From Candidatus Methanomethylicaceae archaeon GD_Cm_T35_P0_bin.15 (GTDB lineage Archaea > Thermoproteota > Methanomethylicia > Methanomethylicales > Methanomethylicaceae), in NCBI GenBank assembly GCA_038801785.1, contig JAULTD010000001.1:289404-353403 (forward strand): a DNA stretch of 64,000 nucleotides, read 5' to 3'. The notes below the pieces were generated by a model, which did not search any database, had not been told where the DNA came from, and worked only from the letters and a program-made list of their open reading frames with translations. The position numbers and the translations under genes were made by a program. Below are positions 11,079 to 46,617 of this stretch, one piece after another (position 1 is the first letter of the stretch; every line of letters begins with the position of its first letter).

Positions 11079-11358
11079 ATTACTGCCCCCTACAGATCAT
11101 GGCAGAGGCGTGCACTGACGAGATACTGCATGCGCATGGGGATACGATCACTGGCCTCACCGTACTGATCAGCTCAATGCGGCAAACTCTATCCTGTCGG
11201 GTAAGTTAAACCTTATCATTAGGCGGTTTCCTGGGGGAAAACTCCGGCGGTCCGGGAGCCCGGAAGCATGGCATGTGGCACTGCGGGATGCGGAGGATTC
11301 TGGCAAAATACAAAATAAAAGATAGCAAGGGGCCGGGATGCCCCCTCCCCTTTGTGGT

Positions 11359-11682
11359 TTAACCGAAGAGTGAGCCCAGTCCTTCTGCCATCTCTTCCTC
11401 GGTAGCCTCTGCCTTCTTCTCAGCTTTAGCCTCCTTGGCTTCTGCTGCTGCGGCTGGAGCTGCTGCTGCGGCCGGAGCTGCTGCAACTGGAACTGCTGCA
11501 GCCTTGATTGCCTCATCGATGTTGACCTCGCCGAGAGCAGCGACGACTGCCTTTACGCGCGCGTCATCTACCTGGATACCAGCGGCAGAGAGAACGTTCT
11601 TCACTCCGTTCTCGTCTATAGGCTTCTTAGCGTTGTGGAGAAGCAGACCGGCATAAATATATTCGATCTTAATCACCCCCAA
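11359..11682 (-). CDS. rpl12: 50S ribosomal stalk protein P1 (L12e)
   Basis: IEYIYAGLLLH... N-terminus, Ala/Pro hinge, acidic tail ending EEEMAEGLGSLFG. The true start may be the GTG two codons inside the track ORF. Confidence 0.85.
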   Translation of the reverse strand: MGVIKIEYIYAGLLLHNAKKPIDENGVKNVLSAAGIQVDDARVKAVVAALGEVNIDEAIKAAAVPVAAAPAAAAAPAAAAEAKEAKAEKKAEATEEEMAEGLGSLFG

Positions 11683-11833
11683 CCAAGTTGGATTTTATAC
11701 GATAAGATTACTACTTAAATCCTTCGCCCTTAATCCCGCTGTGCTGATGCGGGTTTTGGCCCCTACGAGGATGTTGCCGGGGGCACTGCCCCCGTCGATG
11801 TCGCTGAAAGCACCGTTCCTCACCAGCAGCACC

Positions 11834-12706
11834 TCACACGGAAAGCTCTGGATGCTTCTCCGAGACCGCCTTCGCCAGCGCCGAGCCCCGCCTCTGTGCG
11901 AGCGAGACCGCCTCGCCTATTGTCTCGGGTATGGGGACCGCGGCGTTCACAGCCAAGCTCTTTGCCTCGTTGAAGCCCTTTGCCACCAGCAGCCGGATGT
12001 TCTCGGGCAGCGGGATAACTGCGCCCACCGAGAGGTTCATCGCGTTCTGGACGGCGGCTATCACGTTGGCGTTGTACTCGTCGAGGTTGATCGCAAGCAC
12101 GTCGCCGGGGATCACGCCGTTGTCGTAGCCCATCCTCAGCTTGAGGCCGACCATGATCGGTTTCAGGCCGAGCTTGCTCAGCAGGTCGGCAAGATCCGCT
12201 GAGATCGGTTCCCCCTTCTTGGCGACCACTGTATCGCTTGCGATCCAGACGTTGCCGTCCTGGATCTTGGTGGGGATCTTGGCAGCGCCGAACTTGCTGA
12301 GCACCGGCCCCGGCTGCATGCCCGTGTTCCCTGCAGTGACAGTTATGTCGTTGGGCGCTATGTCGCCCGGGGCAGCAGCTGACTCGACCTTGTTCTTCTC
12401 GAACATGAGGTAAAGCGAGAAGGGGTTCTTCTTGGAGAATATGAACGCGTTCTGCTCCGAGAGGTACTTTGATATGTCGTTGATGTTCTTGTATTTGCTG
12501 GCCAGGCTCGATATCGCTATCTTGACCAAGGTGTTCTTGGCGACGCGGATGATGAGGTCGTCCTTGAACTTCTTCTTGAGTACCTGGAGCTGGCTTGCCT
12601 TGAGCCCCCTGAGGTCTGCTATCGCGAAGACCGGGTAATCCCGGAAGCAAGCCTCCAGTTCCTTGACTATCTGCTTCTTGTCCACCGTTCTCTTCTTGAC
12701 CGGCAT
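11834..12706 (-). CDS. rplP0: 50S ribosomal stalk protein P0 (uL10)
   Basis: I take the start at the ATG at 12706 (MPVKKRTVDKKQIVKEL...), just downstream of the L1 stop at 12712. The track ORF extends further upstream as a shadow. Position between L1 and P1 is conserved synteny. Confidence 0.85.
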   Translation of the reverse strand: MPVKKRTVDKKQIVKELEACFRDYPVFAIADLRGLKASQLQVLKKKFKDDLIIRVAKNTLVKIAISSLASKYKNINDISKYLSEQNAFIFSKKNPFSLYLMFEKNKVESAAAPGDIAPNDITVTAGNTGMQPGPVLSKFGAAKIPTKIQDGNVWIASDTVVAKKGEPISADLADLLSKLGLKPIMVGLKLRMGYDNGVIPGDVLAINLDEYNANVIAAVQNAMNLSVGAVIPLPENIRLLVAKGFNEAKSLAVNAAVPIPETIGEAVSLAQRRGSALAKAVSEKHPELSV

Positions 12707-12711
12707 CTCTC

Positions 12712-13356
12712 TCACCTCACTCTCACGGGCTTGCCCATCGTCGTCTTGACAATTAGCGAGCCCAGATTCTGGTCTAGCTTGATCCGCCTGTCGACCGTTG
12801 TCAGGACGGCGTTGATGTTCTCGGCTATGTCCTTCGAGTCCATGTCCTCGGCCCCGACCCTGCATCTTATCGCAGGCTGATCGCGTATCCTGACGCGGAC
12901 GGCGTTGCGGTACCTCTTGATTATGGGCTCGACGTTGGCTGTCGGCGGGACCGGCTCAGGCATCTTGCCCCTCGGCCCCAGCACCTGCCCCAAGATCTTG
13001 CCCACGGACGCCATCAGATCGGTCCTAGCCGCCAGAAAGTCGCAGGATTGCGCCAGCTTCTTGGCAGCTTTCTTGTTGCCGGCGTACTGGTCCAGTTCCT
13101 GCCTGGTGATCACCAGGTCTGCTCCGGCCTGCCTCGCCTTCACGACCAGATCGCCGTCGGCTATGACGCAGACCTTCAGCTCCTTTCCTATCGGGTGCGG
13201 GAGGGTGACCGTCTCGTTGATCCTGTTCTCGGGAGCCTTGACGTCGAGGTTCTTGAAGTTCAGGATCAGCTCGACCCCCTGCTTGAAGTTCCTCTTTGCT
13301 GACGCGCTCTTTGCATCATCGACCGCTTTGATCAGCCTCTGCGTATCCAGTTGCAT
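12712..13356 (-). CDS. rpl1: 50S ribosomal protein uL1
   Basis: 214 aa, an L1-like sequence in the conserved L11-L1-P0-P1 order. Confidence 0.9.
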   Translation of the reverse strand: MQLDTQRLIKAVDDAKSASAKRNFKQGVELILNFKNLDVKAPENRINETVTLPHPIGKELKVCVIADGDLVVKARQAGADLVITRQELDQYAGNKKAAKKLAQSCDFLAARTDLMASVGKILGQVLGPRGKMPEPVPPTANVEPIIKRYRNAVRVRIRDQPAIRCRVGAEDMDSKDIAENINAVLTTVDRRIKLDQNLGSLIVKTTMGKPVRVR

Positions 13357-30029: not shown

Positions 30030-30260
30030 TTACTTAAAAAGTTTGTCGGTCGAGCGGGCAATCCGACGGGTTAGGATGCGGCCGCCGGGATTCGAACCCG
30101 GGATCCGAAGCTTGGGAAGGAAACTCTTGGAAAGAGTTTCATCAGAAACGGCAATTTTGATGATGTTCTGCGGGGTTGTACTGTACAGGGAAGCCAGCTC
30201 CTTCAGGCGCCCGGCTACGTCTTCAGGGACGGTCAGGACCTTGTAGCCTTTCCTGGGCAT
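30030..30260 (-). CDS. integrase N-terminal fragment Int(N), reading through the left att into flanking DNA
   Basis: Codons 1-47 (30260-30120) are element-encoded (MPRKGYKVLTVPEDVAGRLKELASLYSTTPQNIIKIAVSDETLSKSF). Codon 48 starts exactly at the first att base. The att translation LPKLRIPGSNPGGRI is the same at both ends. Confidence 0.7.
   Translation of the reverse strand: MPRKGYKVLTVPEDVAGRLKELASLYSTTPQNIIKIAVSDETLSKSFLPKLRIPGSNPGGRILTRRIARSTDKLFK
30074..30119. repeat. att site, left copy (orphan 3' half of tRNA-Gly(CCC))
   Basis: ggatgcggccgccgggattcgaacccgggatccgaagcttgggaag, identical to 39816-39861. The flanking bases differ on both sides. Confidence 0.95.
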
Positions 30261-30314
30261 AAGTGCTCGGCTACCGTATGTCAGAAGAGACGGAAGAGGT
30301 TATCGGTACATAGG

Positions 30315-31493
30315 TTACATATACTTACAGAGTCCAGCAATACGCTGGTGTAGCAGTTTTTTATCCTTAATATAACCTGCAGAATCTCGATCATTAATAT
30401 ATTCCCCACTGACTGCCAGTTCTTTCTTACTAGCTGTCACTTCATGAATTTTGGATAGATAATTAATTCTTGGTAGTGCCTTAGACAACTCCTTTTCATC
30501 GTTGGTAGCGGTAAGTAAGTAATGCAGATACTCCATATCTTTACTATTATTTTCAACAGCTAAGTCATGAGCTATTTTATCAGGATCAGGACTATAATGT
30601 ACAAAATCTTTGATGCCTAGATCATCCCTATCAAAGAACATTGTGGTTATTTTTCCTATTCCACCGCGTTTTCTTTTAATAAAGATACCATTTTCAATAC
30701 AGAAGATATCGCCAAGTCGGTATTCAGAGAAGTGTGTGCAAGATAAATGATCGTCAAACTTCCTCTTTACATCCGTCATAATTATCGCAATATTTTCGTT
30801 TTTTAGTGTGTCCCAAACATAATCGTAGTTTATAGCGACCTCTTCATAAGGATGGAAAATTAGGCCAAGGAGGTTAATAGTTCCACTCGCACTCTGGTTT
30901 TTAACGAAGTCAACTATTTGCTTAAAGTGCTTCTCATCATGTTTAAGATCCAAGAAAAAGATAGGTTCCATTCCTTCCTCCAGAATATTGTCATGTATTC
31001 CTTTGAGAATATCAAGTTGCGCTAAATTACCTAGATGAGGGACTGCCAGCAAGTTACTCTCTTTATTTTGAAGCGTGGTCTCTAGACTAAAAGTCATCCT
31101 TAGAAATTTCTCGTAGGTGGTCCTGCTTATACAAGATAGCCCACTTTGACATGGTTGCACCAGTATCAGAGGTAAAGATGCGTGGATCCCTCGTTTCATA
31201 ACGTTTTCAGCGTCAGTGTAGACATCTGAATACCCTTGGTTTTCCGAAAGAAACCTAGCTGTACAATCAGAACCTAATTTGTATGGCAGGAATAGGATGT
31301 CACTATCGTTAAGCAATGGTGTAGCAATGGGCACTTTCTTCTTGGCGTTGAGTTCCGATCGTGTTATGGATCTAAAAGGCGTTTTGAAGGTAATTCCATT
31401 TATTTGGATCTCGGTGGTCCTGCAACGATAGAATAGTTCAGACTTACGGTCTTTTTCATCAACATTATTTACGTGTACTTTAACTTTACTCAT
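30315..31493 (-). CDS. 392-aa protein of unknown function (third gene of the coupled operon)
   Basis: The ATG at 31493 overlaps the upstream stop as ATGA. AT-rich codon usage. Alternating hydrophobic strand-like segments (ILFLPY, LILVQP, LLAVPHL, IFFLDLK, LLGLIF, IAIIMTDVK). I recognise no family. Confidence 0.6.
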   Translation of the reverse strand: MSKVKVHVNNVDEKDRKSELFYRCRTTEIQINGITFKTPFRSITRSELNAKKKVPIATPLLNDSDILFLPYKLGSDCTARFLSENQGYSDVYTDAENVMKRGIHASLPLILVQPCQSGLSCISRTTYEKFLRMTFSLETTLQNKESNLLAVPHLGNLAQLDILKGIHDNILEEGMEPIFFLDLKHDEKHFKQIVDFVKNQSASGTINLLGLIFHPYEEVAINYDYVWDTLKNENIAIIMTDVKRKFDDHLSCTHFSEYRLGDIFCIENGIFIKRKRGGIGKITTMFFDRDDLGIKDFVHYSPDPDKIAHDLAVENNSKDMEYLHYLLTATNDEKELSKALPRINYLSKIHEVTASKKELAVSGEYINDRDSAGYIKDKKLLHQRIAGLCKYM

Positions 31494-32050
31494 CCTCGCC
31501 CGCGTCCCCAAGTAATTCCTTTGTATTTTTTCTTGAGTTCCGATTTATCTATAAACTCTGGATAATGTTCGTAAGCATAACGGAGTATGCCATCGGTACC
31601 TAGTTCATCCCACCCCTTCCGGTACGAACGGACTTTTTCAATAACGCGCTCGGGGATTTTACATAGTCGACCCTTGGCGTAGACGCTTCCCCTTTTAGTT
31701 AGTACAAAGGACTCATTTCGGGTATTTTTCTTACCCCTGCGTTCGATATACCCTGCGAGCTCAAGGTCTTTGAGAAGCTCCGCTATCTTGAAGCTGTACA
31801 TTCCAAATCGAAATGGGACATAGTGTAGGTCTTCAAGCGAAGTATTTTCGTAGTGTTTCCGTAGTATTTCCTCGTTAAGGAGGAACACTTCTTTCATGAA
31901 TAGAGTTCTACCATAAATTGGTTTATCATACGAGTTGAGTAATAACAGCACGATCTCGCTGGCAGTTAGCTGTGGAGGAGTTATTTTATCATATGCTCTA
32001 AGTGCCTCCTCAAAAGTGTAGAGTTTCGTCTTATCTTCTATAACGTTCAT
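31490..32050 (-). CDS. YwgA-like / Panacea (DUF4065)-like wHTH protein, copy 1
   Basis: GRTLFMKEVFLLNEE...YVPFRFGMYSFKIAELLKDLELAGYIERRG parallels the KLQKxxYxxxx...FxxYGPYSxxL...L...G pattern. The ATG at 32050 overlaps the upstream stop as ATGA. Confidence 0.55.
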   Translation of the reverse strand: MNVIEDKTKLYTFEEALRAYDKITPPQLTASEIVLLLLNSYDKPIYGRTLFMKEVFLLNEEILRKHYENTSLEDLHYVPFRFGMYSFKIAELLKDLELAGYIERRGKKNTRNESFVLTKRGSVYAKGRLCKIPERVIEKVRSYRKGWDELGTDGILRYAYEHYPEFIDKSELKKKYKGITWGRGRG

Positions 32051-32529
32051 AGTCGCACCTCTACCAGATCGCCCGCCTTGAAGTTTTTGCATGCATCCGT
32101 TTTAATCCTGTAAACTTTCAGGAAATAACGCTTGCCATTATGAAGCAACCATAGGTGTAGTGGTGGATTTCTCTGGGTTATTTCTTGCTTAATGCTATCT
32201 TGTAGCGATTGAGTTGGTCTAGTTATATACTGTAACTCCGTAACGAGGTCGGTCAAAGTGATTCCAGCTATCTTCATTTGCGCTACAGTTTCCTCTGGAT
32301 ACAAAATTCCCTCGGCAAAGCAACCGGGTTCGATTACTTCGTATTTAGTCCCGCAAGCGTGGCAATTCTTTTGTGGTATGCCCTGTACCGCATAGACGCG
32401 TGGTTTGCCAAAAGACATGGTACCGATTTTAGGAAGTTGTAGAGTCCAAGGGCTGCTTATTTGTTCAAGTGTGATCGTTTCTACAGAGCCGGCCCCACAA
32501 TAAGGGCAGTAAGCGGGCAAAGATGCCAA
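32047..32529 (-). CDS. Zn-ribbon protein, unknown function (first gene of the coupled operon)
   Basis: CPYC (aa 8-11) and CHAC (aa 56-59) pairs, followed by an ~90-aa C-terminal domain with no motif I recognise. Confidence 0.5.
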   Translation of the reverse strand: MASLPAYCPYCGAGSVETITLEQISSPWTLQLPKIGTMSFGKPRVYAVQGIPQKNCHACGTKYEVIEPGCFAEGILYPEETVAQMKIAGITLTDLVTELQYITRPTQSLQDSIKQEITQRNPPLHLWLLHNGKRYFLKVYRIKTDACKNFKAGDLVEVRL

Positions 32530-32968
32530 CCGAGCGCCTCACTTGAATTATGTCTGTTAATATAATTTAGACTGTTTATAAGCTATATCAAAAATTGTAC
32601 GATACCACAAAGTATCAGAGGTTAAGAGTCTAAACTAGTTATTTATTTTTATCAGACATAGGGTAACTATAACGCTCCAATTTTGGTAGCATTTATGAGT
32701 TTTATTTTCACCCCTCCCTCCCGCCGTAACCACCTTTCCCGAGTCCTTTTACCCTCCCGCCTACTACAAAGGACGGGAAGCGCTATGCATTCACAGCCGA
32801 CCCTGGAGGATCTGGGCGAGGAGCTCTTCAACGGGAAGGTAAAGTGCCAGAAGTGCGGGAAGTGGTGCATGTCCTGGCTCGGGCTGGCCGTACGCACTTC
32901 GGCAAGCGCCACGGGAAGCGCCTGGCGGAGGCCACGTGGGAGGACCTGGGGAAGGTGGGAGGATCCTG

Positions 32969-33130
32969 ATGGGCTGGAGGGAGTGCGAGGACGTCCTGGA
33001 GCTCGCGCTGCTAAAGATGCGCAGGTGCCGATCCGCGGAGGAGTGCAGGGGAGCGGTGGCGGATATCTTGGCGCTGGTCAAGGAAAGGAAGTTCGAGAGG
33101 CTGAAGGAGGAGCTGGGGGTGATGGAGTGA
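32969..33130 (+). CDS. possible small helical protein (53 aa) inside a GC-rich patch of the element
   Basis: MGWRECEDVLELALLKMRRCRSAEECRGAVADILALVKERKFERLKEELGVME. Its ATG overlaps the TGA of an upstream reading frame (TGATG). Confidence 0.3.
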   Translation: MGWRECEDVLELALLKMRRCRSAEECRGAVADILALVKERKFERLKEELGVME

Positions 33131-33254
33131 TGATAGTATGTTGATTAGACCTTGTCATTAAAAACTAAAATTTTTTAAAGCCAAAAAGTGATAGTGTCTT
33201 TATAATAAGAATATATTTTAGAGAAGATGGGTTTAGAAATGGGTTGGAATAGAA

Positions 33255-33698
33255 ATGGTCACCGGCGACAGAAAGAAACTCCTGACATATTTAAAATATA
33301 CTGGGAGCGAATCGATAGCTACCTTAAAAGACAGAAAAATAGCACAGAAAAAAATTTACCTTTTGCAGCGAATTGGACTGGACTTGGGATACCATTTCGG
33401 TTGGTACATCTATGGTCCGTATTCGCCTCGTCTAGCCGATGATCTATACGAAGCCTTTGATGCTCAAGACACTAAAGATATGCCGCTAGAGCAGGAAGAA
33501 AAAAATTGTTTAGACAAGTTGAACTCAATCCTGTCAAAACTTCCAGAAGACCAAAAGGACTATTGGCTTGAGCTCTTGGCATCTTTAGATGTAGTGAAAA
33601 AGAAAGAGCTTCTCAAGAAACTTAAACCGAATAAGTTTAAAGATGAAGATATCATGCGCAGTGAGGCTTTGCTTGAGAGATACTTAAGGCGAACGTAG
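33255..33698 (+). CDS. YwgA-like / Panacea (DUF4065)-like wHTH protein, copy 2
   Basis: KIAQKKIYLLQRIGLDLGYHFGWYIYGPYSPRLADDLYEAF closely follows the KLQKLLY...F.W.YGPYS..L pattern. Its stop TAG is immediately followed by the ATG of the HD gene. Confidence 0.65.
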   Translation: MVTGDRKKLLTYLKYTGSESIATLKDRKIAQKKIYLLQRIGLDLGYHFGWYIYGPYSPRLADDLYEAFDAQDTKDMPLEQEEKNCLDKLNSILSKLPEDQKDYWLELLASLDVVKKKELLKKLKPNKFKDEDIMRSEALLERYLRRT

Positions 33699-35069
33699 AT
33701 GCGTCCACATGACATTTATGATTCTGTACATGGCTACATCCACATAACAGCTGAGGGGGACGACATAGTAGCCGACCCTTATTTTCAGAGACTTAGGAGG
33801 GTACACCAGCTCGGCCTTGGAAACATGGTATTTCCCAGCGCAGAGCATACGCGTTTTTCCCATTCATTAGGCGTAATGCACATAGTGACAAAGATGGTAG
33901 ACGCATTGAACAATAACGTCGGAAGCAATTCACAGCTCATTGATAAGGACGATAAAAACCTCTTACGCGTCGCAGGTCTTCTTCACGATGTAGGGCATAT
34001 GCCTTTCTCGCACTTCTTGGAAGATGTAGCCAAATCTATGGGCAGTACTATCAGGCACGAAGATTTGGCTGGAAAGATAATTAAAGAGACCGGTCTTAAA
34101 GATGAGGTAGAAAAAGCGGTCGGTAATAAGGTGGAGGAAGTAATTTCCCTCATAAACAAAACTTATGAGTTGGACCTCGATGAAGCAGAAAAAAGAGGGC
34201 AAACTAACGCTCATGTGCTGAATAGTTTAATAAGTTCCGAGCTCGACGCTGACCGCATAGACTACTTGTTGAGGGATGCTTATCACATAGGCATCCCGTA
34301 CGGCAGTTTTGACCTAAATAGGATTTTAAATACCATGATCGTTGCAAAAACGGATGACGGTTCAATGGTTCCCGCTCTTAAAAGGAAGGCGAGACTTGCT
34401 GCCGAAAATTACATTATGGCCAGGCTGCACATGTATGAGGCGGTGTATCTTCACAAAACTATAGGTGCTTTCAATTGTATCCTAAGGGAGCTTTACATCC
34501 AAGGAATTAACGAAGGGATCCTTCCAAGCTTTGAGGAAATGGAAAGCCAAATAACCGAAGATTCTTTCTTCTGTACTTTTGACGATTATTATGTCCTCTC
34601 ACAAATACTCCATCACGATTACCGTAGCGATCACCATAAAAAATTGAAAAAGATGTTCATTGAAAGGCGCCCATTAAAACTTGCATATGAAGTAAAAAAA
34701 TCGAGAGGAACCGTAAATCCTCATGATGTAACCGCAAGTTGGATCGCATTAACTGACATATCAAAAATAAAGGATGAATTTTGCAAAAAGTACGGTCTCA
34801 AACCAGAATCAATTTTCTTTGAAGAGCCAAAGTTATCCGCTCTAAAGGTAAAACTAGATACTGCGGATTATGAGGATGCAATATACATCGAAGACGGCGA
34901 AGGCCACGCGGAGCCCATCAATAAGAATAAAGAGTCTTTCGTAGAATCCCTGCTAAAATATAACATGGATGTAAAGCGCGTTTACACATTTGAAGAGAGT
35001 GTAGAAAAAGTAAAAGAGGCAATAAAAAAAGAAATTGGAAAAAAGAAGGAAGAATACGATCTAAATTAA
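33699..35069 (+). CDS. HD-domain phosphohydrolase, SAMHD1 / dGTPase-like (COG1078 type)
   Basis: RFSHSLGVMHI, GLLHDVGHMPFSH and ELDADRIDYLLRDAY correspond to the H...HD...D metal-site motifs of SAMHD1-like dNTP triphosphohydrolases. Confidence 0.8.
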   Translation: MRPHDIYDSVHGYIHITAEGDDIVADPYFQRLRRVHQLGLGNMVFPSAEHTRFSHSLGVMHIVTKMVDALNNNVGSNSQLIDKDDKNLLRVAGLLHDVGHMPFSHFLEDVAKSMGSTIRHEDLAGKIIKETGLKDEVEKAVGNKVEEVISLINKTYELDLDEAEKRGQTNAHVLNSLISSELDADRIDYLLRDAYHIGIPYGSFDLNRILNTMIVAKTDDGSMVPALKRKARLAAENYIMARLHMYEAVYLHKTIGAFNCILRELYIQGINEGILPSFEEMESQITEDSFFCTFDDYYVLSQILHHDYRSDHHKKLKKMFIERRPLKLAYEVKKSRGTVNPHDVTASWIALTDISKIKDEFCKKYGLKPESIFFEEPKLSALKVKLDTADYEDAIYIEDGEGHAEPINKNKESFVESLLKYNMDVKRVYTFEESVEKVKEAIKKEIGKKKEEYDLN

Positions 35070-35218
35070 TCCAACGCCATCGATACAACCATTACGTTGA
35101 CTTTATGATCTCTTAGTGCCATAAAAAGGTTGTAATTGCGCGGTAGAAGTCGTGAGCTAAATTAATGAAAAATTAATTATTAATAAAAGTTAAACCTATA
35201 AAATGGCAGCGACTAAAG

Positions 35219-38200
35219 ATGACGTTTGAAGAGTCTTTTAAGAAATACCTGGAGGCAGCTTCCTCTGCCGGCACGCACCAGGCAAAGATGATCGCGTTTA
35301 CAATTTTCCTTAGCGAGGTCTTCGGAAAGTCGAGCTATGAGATCATCCAGGATGTAGAGAAGTACGTCTCAACTCGGGACAAAATAAGCATGATGACCAT
35401 AAAAGGCCGAATGGACATGCACTTTGGGCAGACAATCATCGAGTTCAAACTCAATCTTTCGCGCGAGCTGGAAGCGGCAAAGGAGGAGCTGGCCAGGTAC
35501 GCAAAGATCATGCGGAGCAATCGGCAGAAGGTCGGCGAGTGCATAGTGACGGACGGCCTGATCTTCAAAGTAATGGTTGTAGGCGACGAAGCAAAAGAAG
35601 TAAGAGAGATCGACTTCCGCAAGGTGCCGCCGGAAACGGCGATCCTTTTCCTCGACACTTACCTATTCAGCGCCAGGAAGAAGCCTACCGCAGAAGACCT
35701 CGCCATGCGGTTCGGCCCCGGCTCGCCGGTCTACGAGGAAGTAGTAGGCGGACTGACCCCTCTCTTCGGCAACATGCAAATTCCCATAAAGTTCCAGCTG
35801 TGGCAGAGGAACATGCAGATAGTTTACGGGAACGCGCCCCCAGACGAGGCTTTTGTGTCCCAGACTTATCTCATGGTCCTGGTAAGGCTGCTTTTACTGA
35901 GGTATTTGACCGGAAGAGCGCCCCCATTGCTCGACGGCCTGAACGGCAAAATCTTCCAAGAACAAGGAATCCACATCATTGAGGAAGATTTCTTCTCTTG
36001 GATTTTTGATCAGAGGTGCTGGCCGCAGATCGAACCTCTCGTCAATACGATGGTCGATGCGCTCGAATGCTACGATCTCAGCGAGATCGACGAAGACGTC
36101 TTCAAAGAGATCTACCAGGAAATCATAAAGCGCGGCGAGAGGCACAGGATCGGCGAATATTATACGCCTGAGTGGTTGGCGGAACTTACTCTCAACGAGG
36201 CAATTAAAGCGATAGGCCAGGAAAAGAAGTTCACGGTGCTGGACCCCGCGTGCGGCTCAGGCACGTTCCTGACGAAGGCAGTCATCCATCTGAAGAGGAA
36301 CGGGGCTTCGCTCAAAGAAGTCTTGGAAAGCGTTTACGGGATAGATTTGAATCCGCTGGCCATAGAGATTTCGAGGACAAACTACCTCCTGGCGCTTGGC
36401 AGGCTCATTGAGAAGCGGAAAGGGCCGATTTTCATACCCGTGTTCATGGCGGATTCGATAAAGCTGCCGGATGTCCGTAGAGAGGTCATGTACGGCGAGC
36501 CCATCCTCGCCATAGACGTCGACGAGAAATTGCAGCTGAACCTCCCGTTGGAAGTAGCGCTGGATGACAACAAACTGAAAGAGGACCTGAAGCTTTTCGA
36601 GGATATCCTGAGGGAGTACAGGACGGGCAGACTGTCTAAACCGCTGGCGCTCAAGGCCTTTGAAAGCATGTGCGGGCACAGGGAGGCGCTCAAGGAAATA
36701 CTGAAGGAAACGCTGCAGAAGATAATGGATCTAATAGACGTCGACAAGGACTCGATCTGGGTCTTCATGATGCGCAATATTTACGCGCCGTTGAGGATGA
36801 AAGAGAAAAAGTTCGACTTGGTCGTCGGGAACCCTCCCTGGGTGTCGTTCAAGTTCATCGAAAATGTCGAGTACCAGAAATTTATCAAAAAGACGGTGTT
36901 CGAATATGGGCTATTGAGTCCAAAACAAACGGACCTTTTCACGCAGATTGACACATCAACTGCATTCTACACCAAGGTAGCTGACATTTATCTTAAGGAT
37001 AGCGGCATCCTGGCGTTCGTCATGCCCAAGAGCGTCCTCACAGGAGCCAAACAGCATGAGGCATTCAAGAAACAACTCCATCCACCAATGAGGGTTTTGG
37101 GAATACACGACGTGGGTGAGGTTAAACCCCTTTTCAACGTAAAGGCGTGCATAATTATTGCCCAGAAAGGGGGAGCGACTACTTTTCCAGTGCCAGCGGG
37201 CATATGGTCTGGCGAATTGTCCAAGAAAAACGCTTTACTAAAAGACGCCAAGAAGGTTCTTGAATTGAGGGAGTCAAAGTATGTTCCACCAAAAAAGAGT
37301 GATAAAACGAGCCCGTATCATGGTGAGATGCTCTCTGGTGCAGGGATTTATCCTCGGACTTTATGGTTTGTGAAATTCGTGCCAAGCAGCTTTGGGGTCA
37401 ATCTAGAAGAGCCTTTGGTAGAAAGCCTGATTTTGCCCGACGCTAAGGCGCCTTGGAAGAGCGTAATGCTGAAGGGCAGCGTTGAGAAAGATTTTGTATT
37501 TGCCACAATGACCGGAAAGGATTTGCTCCCCTTCAAGCCGCAGTTCAAGGCGGTCGTTCTTCCGATTGAAAAAGGTTCCTACAAATACAAGATTCTCACT
37601 CCGGAGGAGTTAAGGGGAAAGGGCAAGTTAAAGATGGCAAATTGGGTTGAGACAGCAAATAAATATTGGTCTTCACTGGCGACAAAGACTTCGATAGCAA
37701 ACTTTCCCACCCCAATGGATTACATGAACTACCACAATAAGCTAGAGCTGCAAAGGACGAACCTTCGTTATTACGTGGTTTATACCGCGTCCGGTACACA
37801 CATCGCGGCTGCTGTAGTGGATACAAAAAACCTACCGCCGTTCCAGGTCGACGGCGCCAAGATACGCCCCAACGGCTTCGTCGCGGATTATAAGACCTTC
37901 TGGTTCGGCACGAATAATGCAAATGAAGCATCTTACTTGGTGGCCATATTGAACTCGAATGTTATGGATGAGATGATCAAGCCGCACCAGTCAGAAGGGG
38001 CCTTTGGAGCAAGAGACATCTGCAGATTGCCCTTCGAGTTCAACATACCTGAATACGACCCAAACAACGGTATTCACACAGCGCTTGCCGTACTGGGGGC
38101 CGAAGCAGCGAAGGAAGCGGATCGCCTCCCCAGAGCGTCCAGGATGAAAATAAAGGCGAAGATTCCCCAGATGCAGATGATAGATGAACTTACCAAGAAA

Positions 38201-38272
38201 CTATTAATGCAAAATAGATCAGACGTCTTGAGGCGTCAGGAATTAACTGATAAACGATCTAACGATTGCTAA
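35219..38272 (+). CDS. MmeI-like type IIL/IIG restriction-modification enzyme (nuclease, N6-adenine methyltransferase and TRD in one chain)
   Basis: N-terminus QAKMIAFTIFLSEVFGK...GRMDMHFGQTIIEFK gives a D-x8-ExK nuclease motif, like MmeI. Methyltransferase motif I LDPACGSGTFL and motif IV VVGNPPWV. A long C-terminal target-recognition region follows. Confidence 0.75.
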   Translation: MTFEESFKKYLEAASSAGTHQAKMIAFTIFLSEVFGKSSYEIIQDVEKYVSTRDKISMMTIKGRMDMHFGQTIIEFKLNLSRELEAAKEELARYAKIMRSNRQKVGECIVTDGLIFKVMVVGDEAKEVREIDFRKVPPETAILFLDTYLFSARKKPTAEDLAMRFGPGSPVYEEVVGGLTPLFGNMQIPIKFQLWQRNMQIVYGNAPPDEAFVSQTYLMVLVRLLLLRYLTGRAPPLLDGLNGKIFQEQGIHIIEEDFFSWIFDQRCWPQIEPLVNTMVDALECYDLSEIDEDVFKEIYQEIIKRGERHRIGEYYTPEWLAELTLNEAIKAIGQEKKFTVLDPACGSGTFLTKAVIHLKRNGASLKEVLESVYGIDLNPLAIEISRTNYLLALGRLIEKRKGPIFIPVFMADSIKLPDVRREVMYGEPILAIDVDEKLQLNLPLEVALDDNKLKEDLKLFEDILREYRTGRLSKPLALKAFESMCGHREALKEILKETLQKIMDLIDVDKDSIWVFMMRNIYAPLRMKEKKFDLVVGNPPWVSFKFIENVEYQKFIKKTVFEYGLLSPKQTDLFTQIDTSTAFYTKVADIYLKDSGILAFVMPKSVLTGAKQHEAFKKQLHPPMRVLGIHDVGEVKPLFNVKACIIIAQKGGATTFPVPAGIWSGELSKKNALLKDAKKVLELRESKYVPPKKSDKTSPYHGEMLSGAGIYPRTLWFVKFVPSSFGVNLEEPLVESLILPDAKAPWKSVMLKGSVEKDFVFATMTGKDLLPFKPQFKAVVLPIEKGSYKYKILTPEELRGKGKLKMANWVETANKYWSSLATKTSIANFPTPMDYMNYHNKLELQRTNLRYYVVYTASGTHIAAAVVDTKNLPPFQVDGAKIRPNGFVADYKTFWFGTNNANEASYLVAILNSNVMDEMIKPHQSEGAFGARDICRLPFEFNIPEYDPNNGIHTALAVLGAEAAKEADRLPRASRMKIKAKIPQMQMIDELTKKLLMQNRSDVLRRQELTDKRSNDC

Positions 38273-38949
38273 AAGTTGTAGGGCCTCCCTACCTCGTATA
38301 TCTCTTTTGATATCTTTTTCAACTCTTTAAAATAGCCCTTCGGGTACTTTTTCCAATTTATTTTTCTGACCAGGTCTCTGACTTCGTCGGACACACCGCT
38401 GCCAACGTATCATTCCCTATCCTGCTGGGCTTTGGCGTGGTGGCAATAGTTCTGGGATATGCGATCGCGAATATACGCCAGAAGAAGCCGCAGCCGCCCA
38501 TAGTGGTCCAGGTGCAGTCCAAGTACCTCAGGAAGAAGGGCAGGGGACAGGCATGACCAAGCTCCTGTCCTTGGTCGCCTGCATGTGCTTCAATGGTATC
38601 CTCTCATCCAATATGTCCTCAGCTACGCTCTACCGACTAGTGCAAGCTGGAAGATGCACTTTACTGATAGATGAATCGGAGGACTTAGCTAATCCTGAGA
38701 GGCGCCAGGACTTAATCGACTGACCGGCTTTCGGGCTTACTTTTTTTTCGCCCGTTAGATTACAAAAGAGCTGTTTTGTAATGTGTTCCGGTTTCAGCCT
38801 CTGAACTCCATAAAATAGCAGAACTGGAGTACTATATAAAAATAAAATAATATGCGGGCTTTAGGGGGAAGCATCATTGCCCCCTTTCCCTGAGAGCTGA
38901 CCGAGTTACGACAACATCCTCGCCAGCGGGAACGCTTAGCAATGATACT

Positions 38950-39765
38950 TTATGTTAGAACCTTCAGCCCTGCCCGGTCGTATATTGCCTTAAGGTTTTC
39001 AGGCGAATAATCGCTGTAATGCTTGGCCAGCACAGACCGGGGGACCCTGCCCTGGAAGGCGTCGATGAACCTGTCTGCCACGCCCAGACGGGCCATCTCA
39101 TTCGAAAACCAGAACCTCAGCACTTTGGGAGTTATCTTCAGCCCGGTCTTCTTCTGGGCTATGACGAAGAGGCAGGACTTGTCGGAGCCTCTGATAGAGA
39201 AGAGGTTCTCGGACTTGTGCTTGCTTTTCATCCACGCCCCCAACAGGTCCTCGAACTCGCCGTTGTAGAACGTCATGAAGGACCTCTTGGTCCTGGTGGC
39301 ATGCTGGGGAGTGATCATCCTCAGGCCAGTGTTTACGTTAGAGACCTTCAGCCCCAGCAGCTCGGCCCTTCTCAACCCGGTGACAGCGTACCCCACGAAT
39401 GCCAGCCGCTCGTAGTCCTCATCCAGGGCAGAGTAGAACTCTGCGAGCTCTTTCCTGGAGGGCATGCTCATTATGGGCGGGTCCACCTGCTTTATCTTGA
39501 AAGGCAGCTTCACGTCCTGATACTTGGCATAGGCGATAAACGACTTCAGGTAGTTGTTGAAGGTGTTCGGGTTCTCTAACTGCGCCAGGAAGGAGCGCAT
39601 GGCGTCTATCGTGAACGGGTTTGCTGAGAGGTACTTGCGGAGGTTTCCGGTGTACTTCTGGGCGGTCTTCCGGCTTATGTCCAGGTCAGTCAGGCAGAAC
39701 TCCTGGAACTTCAGTACTGTACCAGCATCGAACCCTGTACTGTACCCGTTTCGCGGTTGTTGCAA
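38950..39765 (-). CDS. integrase C-terminal fragment Int(C), tyrosine recombinase catalytic domain
   Basis: GLRRAELLGLK (catalytic Arg region), and RVPRSVLAKHY near the C-terminus (second Arg and Tyr). The track start is a TTG. The frame stays open upstream through the att copy as far as a TAG at 39865-39867. Confidence 0.8.
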   Translation of the reverse strand: MQQPRNGYSTGFDAGTVLKFQEFCLTDLDISRKTAQKYTGNLRKYLSANPFTIDAMRSFLAQLENPNTFNNYLKSFIAYAKYQDVKLPFKIKQVDPPIMSMPSRKELAEFYSALDEDYERLAFVGYAVTGLRRAELLGLKVSNVNTGLRMITPQHATRTKRSFMTFYNGEFEDLLGAWMKSKHKSENLFSIRGSDKSCLFVIAQKKTGLKITPKVLRFWFSNEMARLGVADRFIDAFQGRVPRSVLAKHYSDYSPENLKAIYDRAGLKVLT

Positions 39766-39815
39766 AAGCGTCTTTCTTGGTAAAGCTTCTTTGACGCCGA
39801 CAAAGAAGGTTTGAT

Positions 39816-39861
39816 GGATGCGGCCGCCGGGATTCGAACCCGGGATCCGAAGCTTGGGAAG
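39816..39861. repeat. att site, right copy (within the intact tRNA-Gly)
   Basis: Identical 46-mer to 30074-30119. Confidence 0.95.
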
Positions 39862-39894
39862 CTTCTATCCTAGACCGGACTAGACCACGGCCGC
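39819..39894 (-). tRNA. tRNA-Gly (anticodon CCC), no encoded CCA
   Basis: Reverse complement: GCGGCCG acceptor stem, anticodon arm GAAGC-TTCCCAA-GCTTC, T-arm CCGGG-TTCGAAT-CCCGG, CGGCCGC, discriminator A. Confidence 0.9.
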
Positions 39895-46018: not shown

Positions 46019-46293
46019 AAAAACATTTTGTATATTTTTATCCAAAGCGTTTTAAGCAACGTTTATATACACATTTCATCCGCTAAATAGCGGTTGATGG
46101 TAGACTATGCTGACGATCAAGAGCAAGTGTAGAACAGACAAAGGAGTCTCGCCGATAATAGCGACGCTGTTATTGATAGTCATAGCTGTGGCAGCGGCAG
46201 TTGTCACTTATACGTTCGTAATGGGGTTCGTGGGCACCAGCAGCCAGAATACAGGGCCGTCGGGGCAGCTCACCTATGACACCTACTCTGTGA
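46019..46293. repeat. duplicated pilin promoter plus 5' coding block, copy A
   Basis: Aligns by eye with 52820-53095 with one 1-nt indel and a handful of substitutions. Confidence 0.9.
46062..46069 (+). promoter_or_regulatory. putative TATA box of pilin gene A
   Basis: tttatata lies 38-45 nt upstream of the ATG at 46107. The identical element is found before pilin gene B. Confidence 0.45.
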
Positions 46294-46592
46294 CAGGTGA
46301 TGCGACCAACTCTAATTTCACAGTCTATGTAAGAAATACGGGTGGAAAATCGGTCACGCTTAGTACGGTATATGTTGATGGTGTTTCATACACCTATGCC
46401 ACTGGAAATACTAGTGTACCGCAGACTGCATACTCTTGGGCTTTCACAGTTAGCGGGGCAACACAGGTTTTAGATGTTGCTCAAGTCGGCACATTATATG
46501 TAAACAGTAGCGGACTGAACCCCGCTCAGTGGCATACAGTGAAGATCGTATGCATCGACGGGACTGCCTTGGAGTTCAGCGTAAAGAAGTAA
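46107..46592 (+). CDS. archaeal type IV pilin (class III signal peptide), paralog A
   Basis: MLTIKSKCRTDKG|VSPIIATLLLIVIAVAAAVVTYTFV: a basic leader, then KG|VS, then a hydrophobic helix. Confidence 0.8.
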   Translation: MLTIKSKCRTDKGVSPIIATLLLIVIAVAAAVVTYTFVMGFVGTSSQNTGPSGQLTYDTYSVTGDATNSNFTVYVRNTGGKSVTLSTVYVDGVSYTYATGNTSVPQTAYSWAFTVSGATQVLDVAQVGTLYVNSSGLNPAQWHTVKIVCIDGTALEFSVKK

Positions 46593-46617
46593 CTTTTTGA
46601 TCTTTTTCTTCCCCTTT
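46515..46617. repeat. duplicated pilin 3' coding block plus terminator, copy A
   Basis: Identical by eye to 53269-53371. Confidence 0.9.

Follow-up and report, generated by a model that had tools for sequence, protein, structure and literature searches.

What is the DNA between two identical 46-bp repeats beside a tRNA gene in a Methanomethylicia-related archaeon, how did it get there, and what do its genes do? The repeats lie in a 64,000-nucleotide stretch (here called the window) of contig JAULTD010000001.1 from Candidatus Methanomethylicaceae archaeon GD_Cm_T35_P0_bin.15. We propose that positions 30074-39861 of the window are an archaeal mobile element which was integrated by an integrase of the SSV (spindle-shaped virus) type, also called type I or 'suicidal', that its integrase gene int was split in the process, and that it combines a mosaic backbone with two cargo modules. 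We assign this reading a probability of just under 0.9.

A first-pass annotation of the window had described an AT-rich integrative element bounded by perfect direct repeats, and this description was borne out. The 46-mer GGATGCGGCCGCCGGGATTCGAACCCGGGATCCGAAGCTTGGGAAG occurs in the window in two exact copies in direct orientation, at 30074-30119 (attL) and 39816-39861 (attR), and a shuffled-sequence control gave zero matches with up to three mismatches allowed. ARAGORN and Rfam (61.7 bits) agree in placing an intact tRNA-Gly(CCC) gene at 39819-39894 on the minus strand. As had been claimed, the right copy makes up the 3' part of this gene, starting 3 nt 5' of the anticodon and ending 3 nt past the 3' end of the tRNA, and the left copy is an orphan tRNA 3' half. 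The sliding-window check proposed for the compositional contrast was run: the unique interior of 9,696 bp has a GC content of 0.459 compared to 0.599 for the remaining window, in which 1-kb windows had a standard deviation of 0.035 and a minimum of 0.469. The shift is uneven, with int and a small-gene cassette being host-like in composition and the cargo modules AT-rich. A scan of the element with Rfam and a repeat search revealed nothing meaningful beyond tRNA-Gly and the 46-mer.

A related genome with an empty tRNA-Gly site, which the first-pass annotation had asked for, was found via protein clusters. Two window proteins located to the right of the element, at a distance of at most 12 kb, cluster at at least 90% identity with proteins of L095 (loci used for comparison carry L numbers and proteins P numbers), a 36-kb metagenome contig of the JGI (Joint Genome Institute) that is syntenic with the window. 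In blastn comparisons, L095 8235-14288 corresponded to window positions 45872-39816 in the right flank (99.36% identity) and L095 14243-20891 to positions 30119-23466 in the left flank (99.59% identity). On L095 the two alignments overlap by exactly 46 bp, only one att copy is present, and the insert is absent; the gene order is V4R protein, tRNA-Gly, acetyltransferase, and arginine decarboxylase, with a gap of ~490 bp between the V4R and acetyltransferase genes. The empty attB in a near-identical genome shows that the window holds a precise 9,742-bp insertion, and the target tRNA (attB), regenerated intact, is 100% identical to that of the empty site. Integration must be recent, since the two att repeats show no mismatch and the element is missing from a 99.5%-identical genome. 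As judged from this pair of contigs, the event is a genuine, recent insertion into tRNA-Gly(CCC).

The presence of a tyrosine recombinase next to the tRNA had been noted before. A recombinase is indeed encoded there, but its gene is not intact and is distributed over both ends of the element, as intN on the left and intC on the right. The ORF (open reading frame) at the right end (38950-39765, 271 amino acids) matches the Pfam families Phage_integr_3 (PF16795; 31.7 bits against a cut-off of 27, E = 1.8e-7) and Phage_integrase. At the left end, a 76-codon ORF running from 30260 down to 30030 starts within the element and reads across attL. When the circular attP was rebuilt by joining 39815 via one att copy to 30120, one uninterrupted ORF of 350 amino acids was obtained, in which 47 element codons lead into att, att into 17 further codons, and these into the integrase, all in frame and free of stops. 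The att segment of this protein, LPKLRIPGSNPGGRI, is the sense translation of the 46-mer and lies at the Int(N)/Int(C) junction. The N-terminal fragment intN (30030-30260, minus strand) thus consists of the 47 element codons (30260 to 30120, starting with MPRKGYKVLTVPEDV) and continues via attL into the flank up to a stop at 30030. The C-terminal catalytic fragment intC occupies 38950-39815 on the minus strand, given as its stop-to-stop frame; in the integrated state a stop codon inside the tRNA, right at the border of attR, closes this frame, and the first in-frame start is a TTG codon at 39765.

Full-length homologues of 349 to 390 amino acids (P0005, P0024, P0030, P0041, P0046, P0052, P0069, and P0083) hold both parts in one protein. 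They share an N-terminal MPRKGY(K/R)S(I/L)T domain, with the N-terminus of intN resembling those of P0005, P0024, P0041, and others, and they carry at the matching position a GSNP-type peptide (GSNP/SNP) that is the translation of a tRNA T-arm. P0005 is encoded by an intact gene on the contigs L096 and L097, which stem from metagenome-assembled genomes (MAGs). This single gene matches both ends of the element, the matches overlapping at att: residues 24-83 of the L096 protein correspond to window positions 30260-30081 (64.5%) and residues 74-372 to 39852-38953 (55%). The L096 int gene holds a tRNA-like 26-mer. In a 30-sequence alignment of intC, residues R132, K160, R217, H249, Y250, and Y262 are invariant and R240 and R243 near-invariant, so that the catalytic residues of tyrosine recombinases are conserved in Int(C), with Y250 and Y262 both being candidate nucleophiles. 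SSV-type integrases are defined by an attP within the int ORF and by an int that integration breaks into an int(N) at one end of the element and an int(C) at the other (PMC7253208), and PF16795 is a domain that marks suicidal integrases (PMC8371274). We classify the integrase as SSV-type because int encloses attP, its parts int(N) and int(C) are found at opposite ends, the att sequence is a 40-50-bp tRNA 3' part, and PF16795 is present. The 5' part of intC contains GTACTGTACC twice (39714-39753), at a spacing of 23 bp and a distance of 60-100 bp from the att core; the two copies could be arm-type integrase binding sites or a chance occurrence.

The 124 homologues of the integrase derive mostly from Methanomethylicia, Bathyarchaeia, Hadarchaeia, Nitrososphaeria, and other Thermoproteota, and all close homologues carry PF16795. 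Of 80 genomic loci, about 20 have the integrase gene 50-130 bp downstream of the end of a tRNA gene of the same strand, and in the three closest relatives (L006, L010, and L011; 59-61% identity) this gene is tRNA-Gly(CCC). In L011, L057, and L058, elements of 3.2 to 7.6 kb are bounded by repeats of the tRNA 3' part, and in L011 an intN homologue adjoins attL. The L011 element (9872-13124; 3.2 kb), from a Methanosuratincola MAG, occupies the same tRNA-Gly(CCC) and is older; it has a frameshift in intC and att copies that differ by 1-2 nt, and its cargo consists of a membrane protein and a V4R-domain protein. The contigs L096 (1-12857) and L097 (1-8665), binned in Methanomethylicia MAGs, contain an intact SSV-type int of 349 amino acids and otherwise orphan ORFs besides a DnaA-like gene. 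The product of this gene in L096 (3618-4406), a protein of 262 amino acids, matches the fusellovirus DnaA-like replication protein (PHROG 5484, 1.3e-25). These contigs probably represent a fusellovirus-like episome from a Thermoproteota lineage related to methanogens, and as L096 bears both an intact int and the DnaA-like gene, the integrase family also occurs on fusellovirus-like episomes. A metagenome scan with the rebuilt 350-residue Int yielded four relatives only, with 41-42% identity, and no episomal copy of the window element.

Between its att copies the element carries on the minus strand intN and an overlapping three-gene operon encoding a Zn-ribbon protein (160 amino acids) and proteins of 186 and 392 amino acids. 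The plus strand bears a frameshifted C2H2 zinc-finger gene, a gene for a protein of 53 amino acids, and genes for a YwgA-like protein (147 amino acids), an HD protein (456 amino acids), and a restriction-modification enzyme (1017 amino acids), followed by a 0.68-kb spacer and intC. The GC content at third codon positions is 0.66-0.78 for int and the small-gene cassette, 0.72-0.86 for host genes, 0.64 for the restriction-modification gene, and 0.35-0.44 for the three-gene operon and the YwgA-HD pair. The cassette region 32680-33140 has a GC content of 0.60, its zinc-finger and 53-residue genes 0.60-0.64. Moreover, int and the 53-residue gene are common to L096/L097, and the small-gene cassette is common to L067. 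From these third-position classes and the shared genes we conclude that the element consists of a host-adapted backbone and two foreign cargo modules.

The zinc-finger gene of the backbone cassette (32785-32969, plus strand) was recognised by six-frame translation and needs a +1 frameshift near 32860; the cassette is 72.6% identical to L067 at the nucleotide level. It encodes the motif C-X2-C-X12-H-X5-H. The frameshifted sequence is also present in L002, which was separately assembled but may share reads with the MAG of the window. It could be a probable pseudogene or a case of programmed frameshifting. The adjoining gene (32969-33130, plus strand) overlaps the preceding stop codon (TGATG) and encodes the 53-residue helical protein, which is 75% identical to its L067 counterpart and has a homologue in L096/L097. 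The spacer at 38273-38949 appears to be non-coding or decayed; its short ORFs at 38358-38522 (minus strand) and 38553-38723 (plus strand) have no family matches and are unlike the DnaA-like protein of L096 or SSV4. The statement of the first-pass annotation that capsid, terminase, and clear replication genes are lacking agrees with our Pfam and PHROG scans of the element proteins, which recognised none of the three.

The first cargo module contained what the first-pass annotation had called a restriction-modification enzyme and an HD hydrolase, and both assignments held. The 1017-residue protein (35219-38272, plus strand) matches the PADLOC model REase_MTase_IIG (8.3e-90) and the Pfam families N6_Mtase (1.3e-19), Eco57I (7.5e-16), and MmeI_Mtase; its translation contains an NPPW motif and the N-terminal nuclease motif D66-X8-E75-X-K77 (KGRxDx8EFK), which is kept in a 33%-identical homologue. 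By its predicted domains it is a single-chain Type IIG (MmeI/Eco57I-like) enzyme, in which a PD-(D/E)xK nuclease, a gamma N6A methyltransferase, and a specificity domain are joined. A Nitrososphaeria MAG encodes a 33%-identical Type IIG homologue (L048 3485-6736) just upstream of a tRNA-Cys gene, after which comes a related integrase. The HD protein (33699-35069, plus strand; Pfam HD, 8.6e-15, and HD_assoc_2) resembles solved structures in the PDB, namely 2hek (1e-38), 2o6i (EF1143, 6.5e-35), and SAMHD1 (5e-23), the latter two over ~260 residues, and is a predicted phosphohydrolase of the SAMHD1/EF1143 dNTP (deoxynucleoside triphosphate) triphosphohydrolase family. The curated models of anti-phage dGTPases (PADLOC dGTPase/NCBIfam NF041026) gave 27.4 bits against a cut-off of 400, with ~60 N-terminal residues matching, so that we did not adopt this narrower assignment. 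A related-loci search for the HD protein in viral contigs found nothing.

Directly upstream of the HD gene lies the gene of the 147-residue protein (33255-33698, plus strand), which we call YwgA-like; the first-pass annotation had listed 'YwgA-like adaptors' in the cargo. Support for this label comes from weak PADLOC and NCBIfam matches and one shared motif: the 147-residue protein matches weakly the central/C-terminal part of DarG outside the macrodomain and the PADLOC candidate PDC-M19A, and it shares a 'Y.YGPYS' motif with ORF159a of SSV4. BLASTP detected no similarity between the 147- and 186-residue proteins, and a literature search for 'YwgA' or 'PDC-M19' turned up nothing relevant. Membership in the Panacea family (DUF4065, PF13274) was tried for both YwgA-like proteins, SSV4 ORF159a, and the 233-residue protein of L091, and was rejected for lack of any match at E <= 10.

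The element, to which the first-pass annotation had pointed as the most likely place in the window for undescribed functions, proved to include among its unknown cargo genes one that belongs to a conserved operon of archaeal mobile elements and encodes a TIM barrel similar to tRNA-guanine transglycosylase (TGT), with no match to a known defence system. This is P0001 (392 amino acids; 30315-31493, minus strand), the product of the third operon gene. The first gene (32047-32529, minus strand) encodes the Zn-ribbon protein, whose CxxC...CxxC ligands (C8, C11, C56) are conserved in alignment A5, and the second (31490-32050, minus strand) the 186-residue protein, which is YwgA-like and SSV-ORF159a-like (PHROG 24871, 4e-17; PADLOC PDC-M19A, 8e-9) and shares 32% identity with ORF159a of the fuselloviruses SSV3/4/5 (E = 3e-12). 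A single-sequence AlphaFold2 model of the 186-residue protein had a pLDDT (predicted local distance difference test) score of 38.8 and was unusable. The operon was found in six lineages: the window, L003-5 (64% identity), L086 (41%), L104 (32%), and two Thermoplasmatales integrated elements (21%). The gene of the 392-residue protein is always preceded by a homologue of the 186-residue protein (186 to 233 residues), and upstream of that a Zn-ribbon protein of 150 to 180 residues is encoded in 6 of 6 lineages, by homologues in L005, L086, and L104 and by analogous proteins in L087 and L091. In the circular form of the element the operon would lie directly upstream of int and in the same direction.

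The 392-residue protein is rare. No family was assigned to it in Pfam, NCBIfam, PADLOC, or PHROGs. Among 5.8 billion proteins, word-indexed searching retrieved the protein itself and a single relative; HMMER, run exhaustively on 1.84 billion representative proteins, returned 94 family representatives, and only 7 proteins were obtained when the word-indexed search was made with the family profile. The related-loci search of viral contigs with the TIM-barrel alignments and the 186-residue protein gave nothing. AlphaFold2 modelled the 392-residue protein from a 60-sequence alignment with a pLDDT of 94.8 and a pTM (predicted template modelling score) of 0.93, as a three-stranded sheet followed by a TIM barrel and a helical bundle. 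The top three PDB folds were bacterial TGT (1wkd and 1wkf; E = 3e-6, TM score 0.54-0.56, Foldseek probability 1.00) and human QTRT1, followed by generic TIM barrels at query-normalised TM scores of 0.3-0.38. A Pfam TGT match was obtained for one of 60 relatives (6e-5) and not for the 392-residue protein itself. Searches of PDB sequences gave spurious MCM4 matches only for the family profile and nothing for P0188. Residues P39, R41, H254, E358, and Y374 are invariant in the family, and the near-invariant ones include R25, K51, R244, S251, D262, and E351; the conserved 'LGD262(I/V)' might correspond to GxD(280)MF of TGT, a correspondence that no alignment supports. In its model the protein is TGT-like in fold, and we do not file it as a TGT or as DpdA.

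Our preferred guess, though it is less likely than not, is that the operon encodes a nucleic-acid base-exchange or glycosylase-type enzyme with two nucleic-acid-binding partners, which would modify DNA or RNA in the contest with restriction by the host or by competitors. A wider proposal, which we regard as unlikely though worth stating, is that archaeal viruses and plasmids possess in this operon an undescribed system of three components that exchanges or removes a base in DNA or RNA (giving DpdA-independent modified DNA, or acting as a new conflict effector), with YwgA-like proteins as interchangeable partners controlling different nucleic-acid or nucleotide enzymes, here the TIM barrel and the SAMHD1-like dNTPase. 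The main alternative for the operon is a toxin-antitoxin-like arrangement, for which no Panacea match speaks.

Several observations were made at the loci of operon homologues. The Thermoplasmatales loci L087-L094 hold distant homologues in integrated elements with Dam-type (MethyltransfD12) and N4/N6 methyltransferases, an Mrr_N protein, and integrases. Downstream of the operon in L003 (6896-6970 and 7727-7846), and also in L004 and L005, are two decayed intC remnants of the integrase family, which suggest either repeated integrations or decay of operon-carrying elements. An ORF downstream of the operon in L086 (3565-3957), cut by the contig end, has a PD-(D/E)xK-like motif (DLVLE...LEAKFKK) and may be the start of an operon-linked restriction enzyme.

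The flanks of the element encode leucyl- and alanyl-tRNA synthetases (LeuRS and AlaRS), FlaI, arginine decarboxylase, and other housekeeping proteins. Ca. Methanomethylicus and Ca. Methanosuratincola MAGs and a Thermoproteota bin resemble them at 67-78% nucleotide identity and with partial synteny, which marks the host as a Methanomethylicia-related archaeon. Within the otherwise 99.4-99.6% identical genome pair, identity drops to 84.5% in a patch at 46019-46617 (L095 1136-1719) with a GC content of 0.47; this patch overlaps a pilin/archaellin-like gene (Pilin_N and Flagellin_arch-type in L095) and looks like a hypervariable surface-protein locus. Two Logan contigs of run SRR25293830, L001 and L002, each contain one cargo module at 100% identity and end at the borders of the GC-rich backbone pieces; on the window the ends of L002 and L001 fall at 30278, 32923/33091, and 38989. 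These breaks at int and at the cassette of zinc-finger and 53-residue genes suggest either that those pieces are common to several elements in SRR25293830 or that the element is present there in both episomal and integrated form.

Taken together, the data lead to the following model. In the circular form the 46-bp attP, identical to the 3' part of tRNA-Gly(CCC), lies inside a 350-codon int. As the sequence shows, recombination between attP and attB within the 46-bp core regenerated the tRNA and split int: the left end received the 47 codons of intN with att, and the right end received intC, which now follows the tRNA directly on the same strand. As integrated, the element has no full-length integrase and, to judge from the literature on this integrase type, would be trapped unless a related episome supplies one, so that the autonomous mobility implied by the first-pass annotation is improbable. 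Int(C) alone may keep a weak activity and might be expressed by read-through from the tRNA promoter with the TTG at 39765 as start. The backbone, int and the cassette of zinc-finger and 53-residue genes, also occurs in a fusellovirus-like episome from the same class of archaea, and the two AT-rich cargo modules are recent acquisitions. Restriction-modification and SAMHD1-like enzymes are established anti-viral functions, and an anti-viral function of bacterial dNTPases was reportedly described by Tal and colleagues in 2022. Module 1 most likely protects the host and the element from incoming DNA by restriction and possibly by dNTP depletion, and immunity conferred by the cargo would favour keeping a trapped element. 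The earlier label of a 'compact mobile defence island' therefore fits in part: the restriction-modification enzyme and the HD hydrolase speak for it, whereas the TIM-barrel gene matches no known defence system and the adaptor label is weak.

The strongest competitor concerns the benefit of the cargo, which may serve the element instead: the restriction-modification enzyme and the pairs of YwgA-like protein and enzyme would then be addiction modules, and the TIM-barrel operon would modify the DNA of the element against host restriction. The occurrence of the operon on integrated elements with orphan Dam-type and N4/N6 methyltransferases, its vicinity to integrase remnants in L003-L005, and its position ahead of int in the circle are in agreement with this assumption, as are the weak match of the 147-residue protein to the antitoxin DarG and the resemblance of its YGPYS motif to the GPV signature of Panacea antitoxins (PMC8832971). 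Against it stand the failure to match Panacea even at the permissive threshold, the lack of any recognised toxin family, and the anti-viral functions named above. We consider this use of the cargo somewhat improbable, if a serious contender.

A further possibility, which concerns origin and is compatible with an SSV-type integration, is that the element is a degraded fusellovirus-like provirus whose virion and DnaA-like genes were lost and replaced by cargo. It would explain why int and the 53-residue gene are shared with L096/L097, which bear the fusellovirus DnaA-like protein, why the 186-residue protein is homologous to ORF159a of SSV3/4/5, and why the decayed spacer of 0.68 kb adjoins intC at the place where SSV4 and L096 have their DnaA-like gene. 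No remnant of DnaA-like or structural genes was detected, however: tblastn searches of the element with the DnaA-like proteins of L096 and SSV4 gave nothing significant, and the Fuselloviridae core genes (DnaA-like AAA+, VP1/VP3-type capsid) had no PHROG or Pfam match among the element proteins. The ORF at 38553-38723 ('TLLIDESEDL') was considered as a DnaA-like remnant and rejected, as it shows no similarity. Furthermore, plasmids also carry SSV-type integrases (PMC7253208), and the recent integration leaves little time for decay in situ, so that the element probably arrived already in its 9.7-kb form. We regard a proviral origin as doubtful.

Very improbable is a lambda/pNOB8-type (type II) island, the model implicit in the first-pass annotation, in which attP would lie apart from an intact 271-residue integrase and a small independent regulator or excisionase of the RHH (ribbon-helix-helix) type would allow self-excision. 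A 271-residue ORF with an in-frame TTG start does exist, many database entries of the family are annotated with 270-300 residues, and the left-end ORF resembles an RHH protein by eye; but this ORF and int share one frame without a stop across the rebuilt attP, the 349-390-residue homologues combine both parts around a tRNA-derived peptide, the one intact gene of L096 maps onto both element ends, and the integrated intC frame is stopped exactly at the att border. As int is split, assignment to the pNOB8-type or lambda-like elements, whose int stays intact after integration, was rejected. An assembly artefact, by which the assembler would have placed a circular episome into a tRNA-Gly site that was in fact empty, via the shared 46 bp and with both forms present in the sample, is hardly credible either, for while the window derives from a 547-kb metagenome-assembled contig and the Logan contigs of the same element stop short of both junctions, 46 bp is shorter than the final k-mers and reads of usual assemblers, hence both junctions must be read through, the layout of tRNA-intC and intN-attL recurs in other genomes (L011, L057, L058), and even an artefact would leave the element and its attP-in-int organisation standing.

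Some points weigh against the SSV-type element with its two functional modules as we describe it. The main caveat is that the attL and attR junctions are known from one metagenome assembly, L001 and L002 ending before them. The int gene and the tRNA are parallel here, compared to antiparallel in pT26-2 (PMC7253208). Protein activities and the expression of intC are predictions, and the defence role of the HD/YwgA pair is drawn by analogy, the dGTPase models scoring 27 against 400 bits. The TGT link of the operon lies in the fold: when the protein was aligned by hhalign with E. coli Tgt and a 7-sequence Tgt set, only the N-terminal 35-38 residues with an 'R..G......TPxF' stretch were matched, and not significantly (E = 0.037, probability 1.4%, and 35 residues for the 7-sequence alignment). 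In addition, the TGT zinc site CxCxxC...H and the DSGGFQ motif appear to be absent, the invariant columns being without a conserved Cys cluster.

The SSV-type element inferred here offers a clean natural case of 'suicidal' integration, with filled and empty sites in genomes that are ~99.5% identical. It extends an archaea-only integrase class and fusellovirus-like elements to Methanomethylicia, with relatives in Bathyarchaeia, Hadarchaeia, and Nitrososphaeria. As a carrier of restriction and nucleotide-depletion genes, such an element bears on how archaea acquire defence genes and on the persistence of self-inactivating integrases. The part with real discovery potential is the rare operon with its confidently modelled TGT-like protein, a candidate for a new nucleic-acid modification or defence activity.

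Comparison with known systems places the individual parts. The restriction-modification enzyme agrees with MmeI-family Type IIG/IIL enzymes in its single chain of ~1000 residues with an N-terminal D-X8-E-X-K motif, a gamma-class N6-adenine methyltransferase NPPW motif, and a C-terminal specificity region; it differs in that profiles match only its central 460 residues and that the solved MmeI structure is not matched at E <= 0.001. The HD protein shares with SAMHD1, EF1143, and the anti-phage dGTPases the HD domain and the associated helical region (1e-38 to 5e-23 against solved members), but falls below the NCBIfam dGTPase equivalog cut-offs and is paired here with a small YwgA-like protein. 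Like the TGT/DpdA superfamily, the 392-residue protein has TGT/QTRT1 as its top fold matches and an N-terminal beta-hairpin followed by 'TPxF/R', which aligns with 'TPxFMPVGT' of Tgt, and DpdA-type enzymes are likewise virus-borne and modify DNA (PMC6884629). Unlike that superfamily, it has no significant sequence or profile similarity to it, ends in a helical bundle with the invariant E358 and Y374, and is always encoded together with Zn-ribbon and YwgA-like genes, with no preQ0 pathway genes nearby.

Small C2H2 zinc-finger genes are typical of SSVs. The element has such a gene in common with the Fuselloviridae (SSV1-SSV10 and related spindle-shaped viruses), as well as the integrase type and a homologue of ORF159a of SSV3/4/5, and its nearest episomal relative, L096, has the DnaA-like hallmark gene; in the window element itself, by contrast, DnaA-like, VP1/VP3-like capsid, and other SSV core genes were not detectable. 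Integrated elements with SSV-type integrases were reportedly described by She and colleagues in 2001. With SSV-type elements in general (SSV1/SSV2, pXQ1, pSSVi, pTN3/TKV4, and the pT26-2 family) it shares PF16795, the attP in int, and the split int (Badel et al. 2020, PMC7253208; Badel et al. 2021, PMC8371274), and also an att core of 40-50 bp that begins shortly 5' of the anticodon and extends a few nt beyond the 3' end of the tRNA. It differs from them in its N-terminal integrase domain, which opens with an RHH-like MPRKGY motif, in having no recognisable replication or virion genes, in its cargo of a restriction-modification enzyme, an HD dNTPase, and a three-gene operon, and in its Methanomethylicia-related host, the known ones being from Sulfolobales, Thermococcales, and Archaeoglobales. 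The type of element is thus already known, and the one in the window is a member in a new host lineage, of which only the three-gene operon is new.

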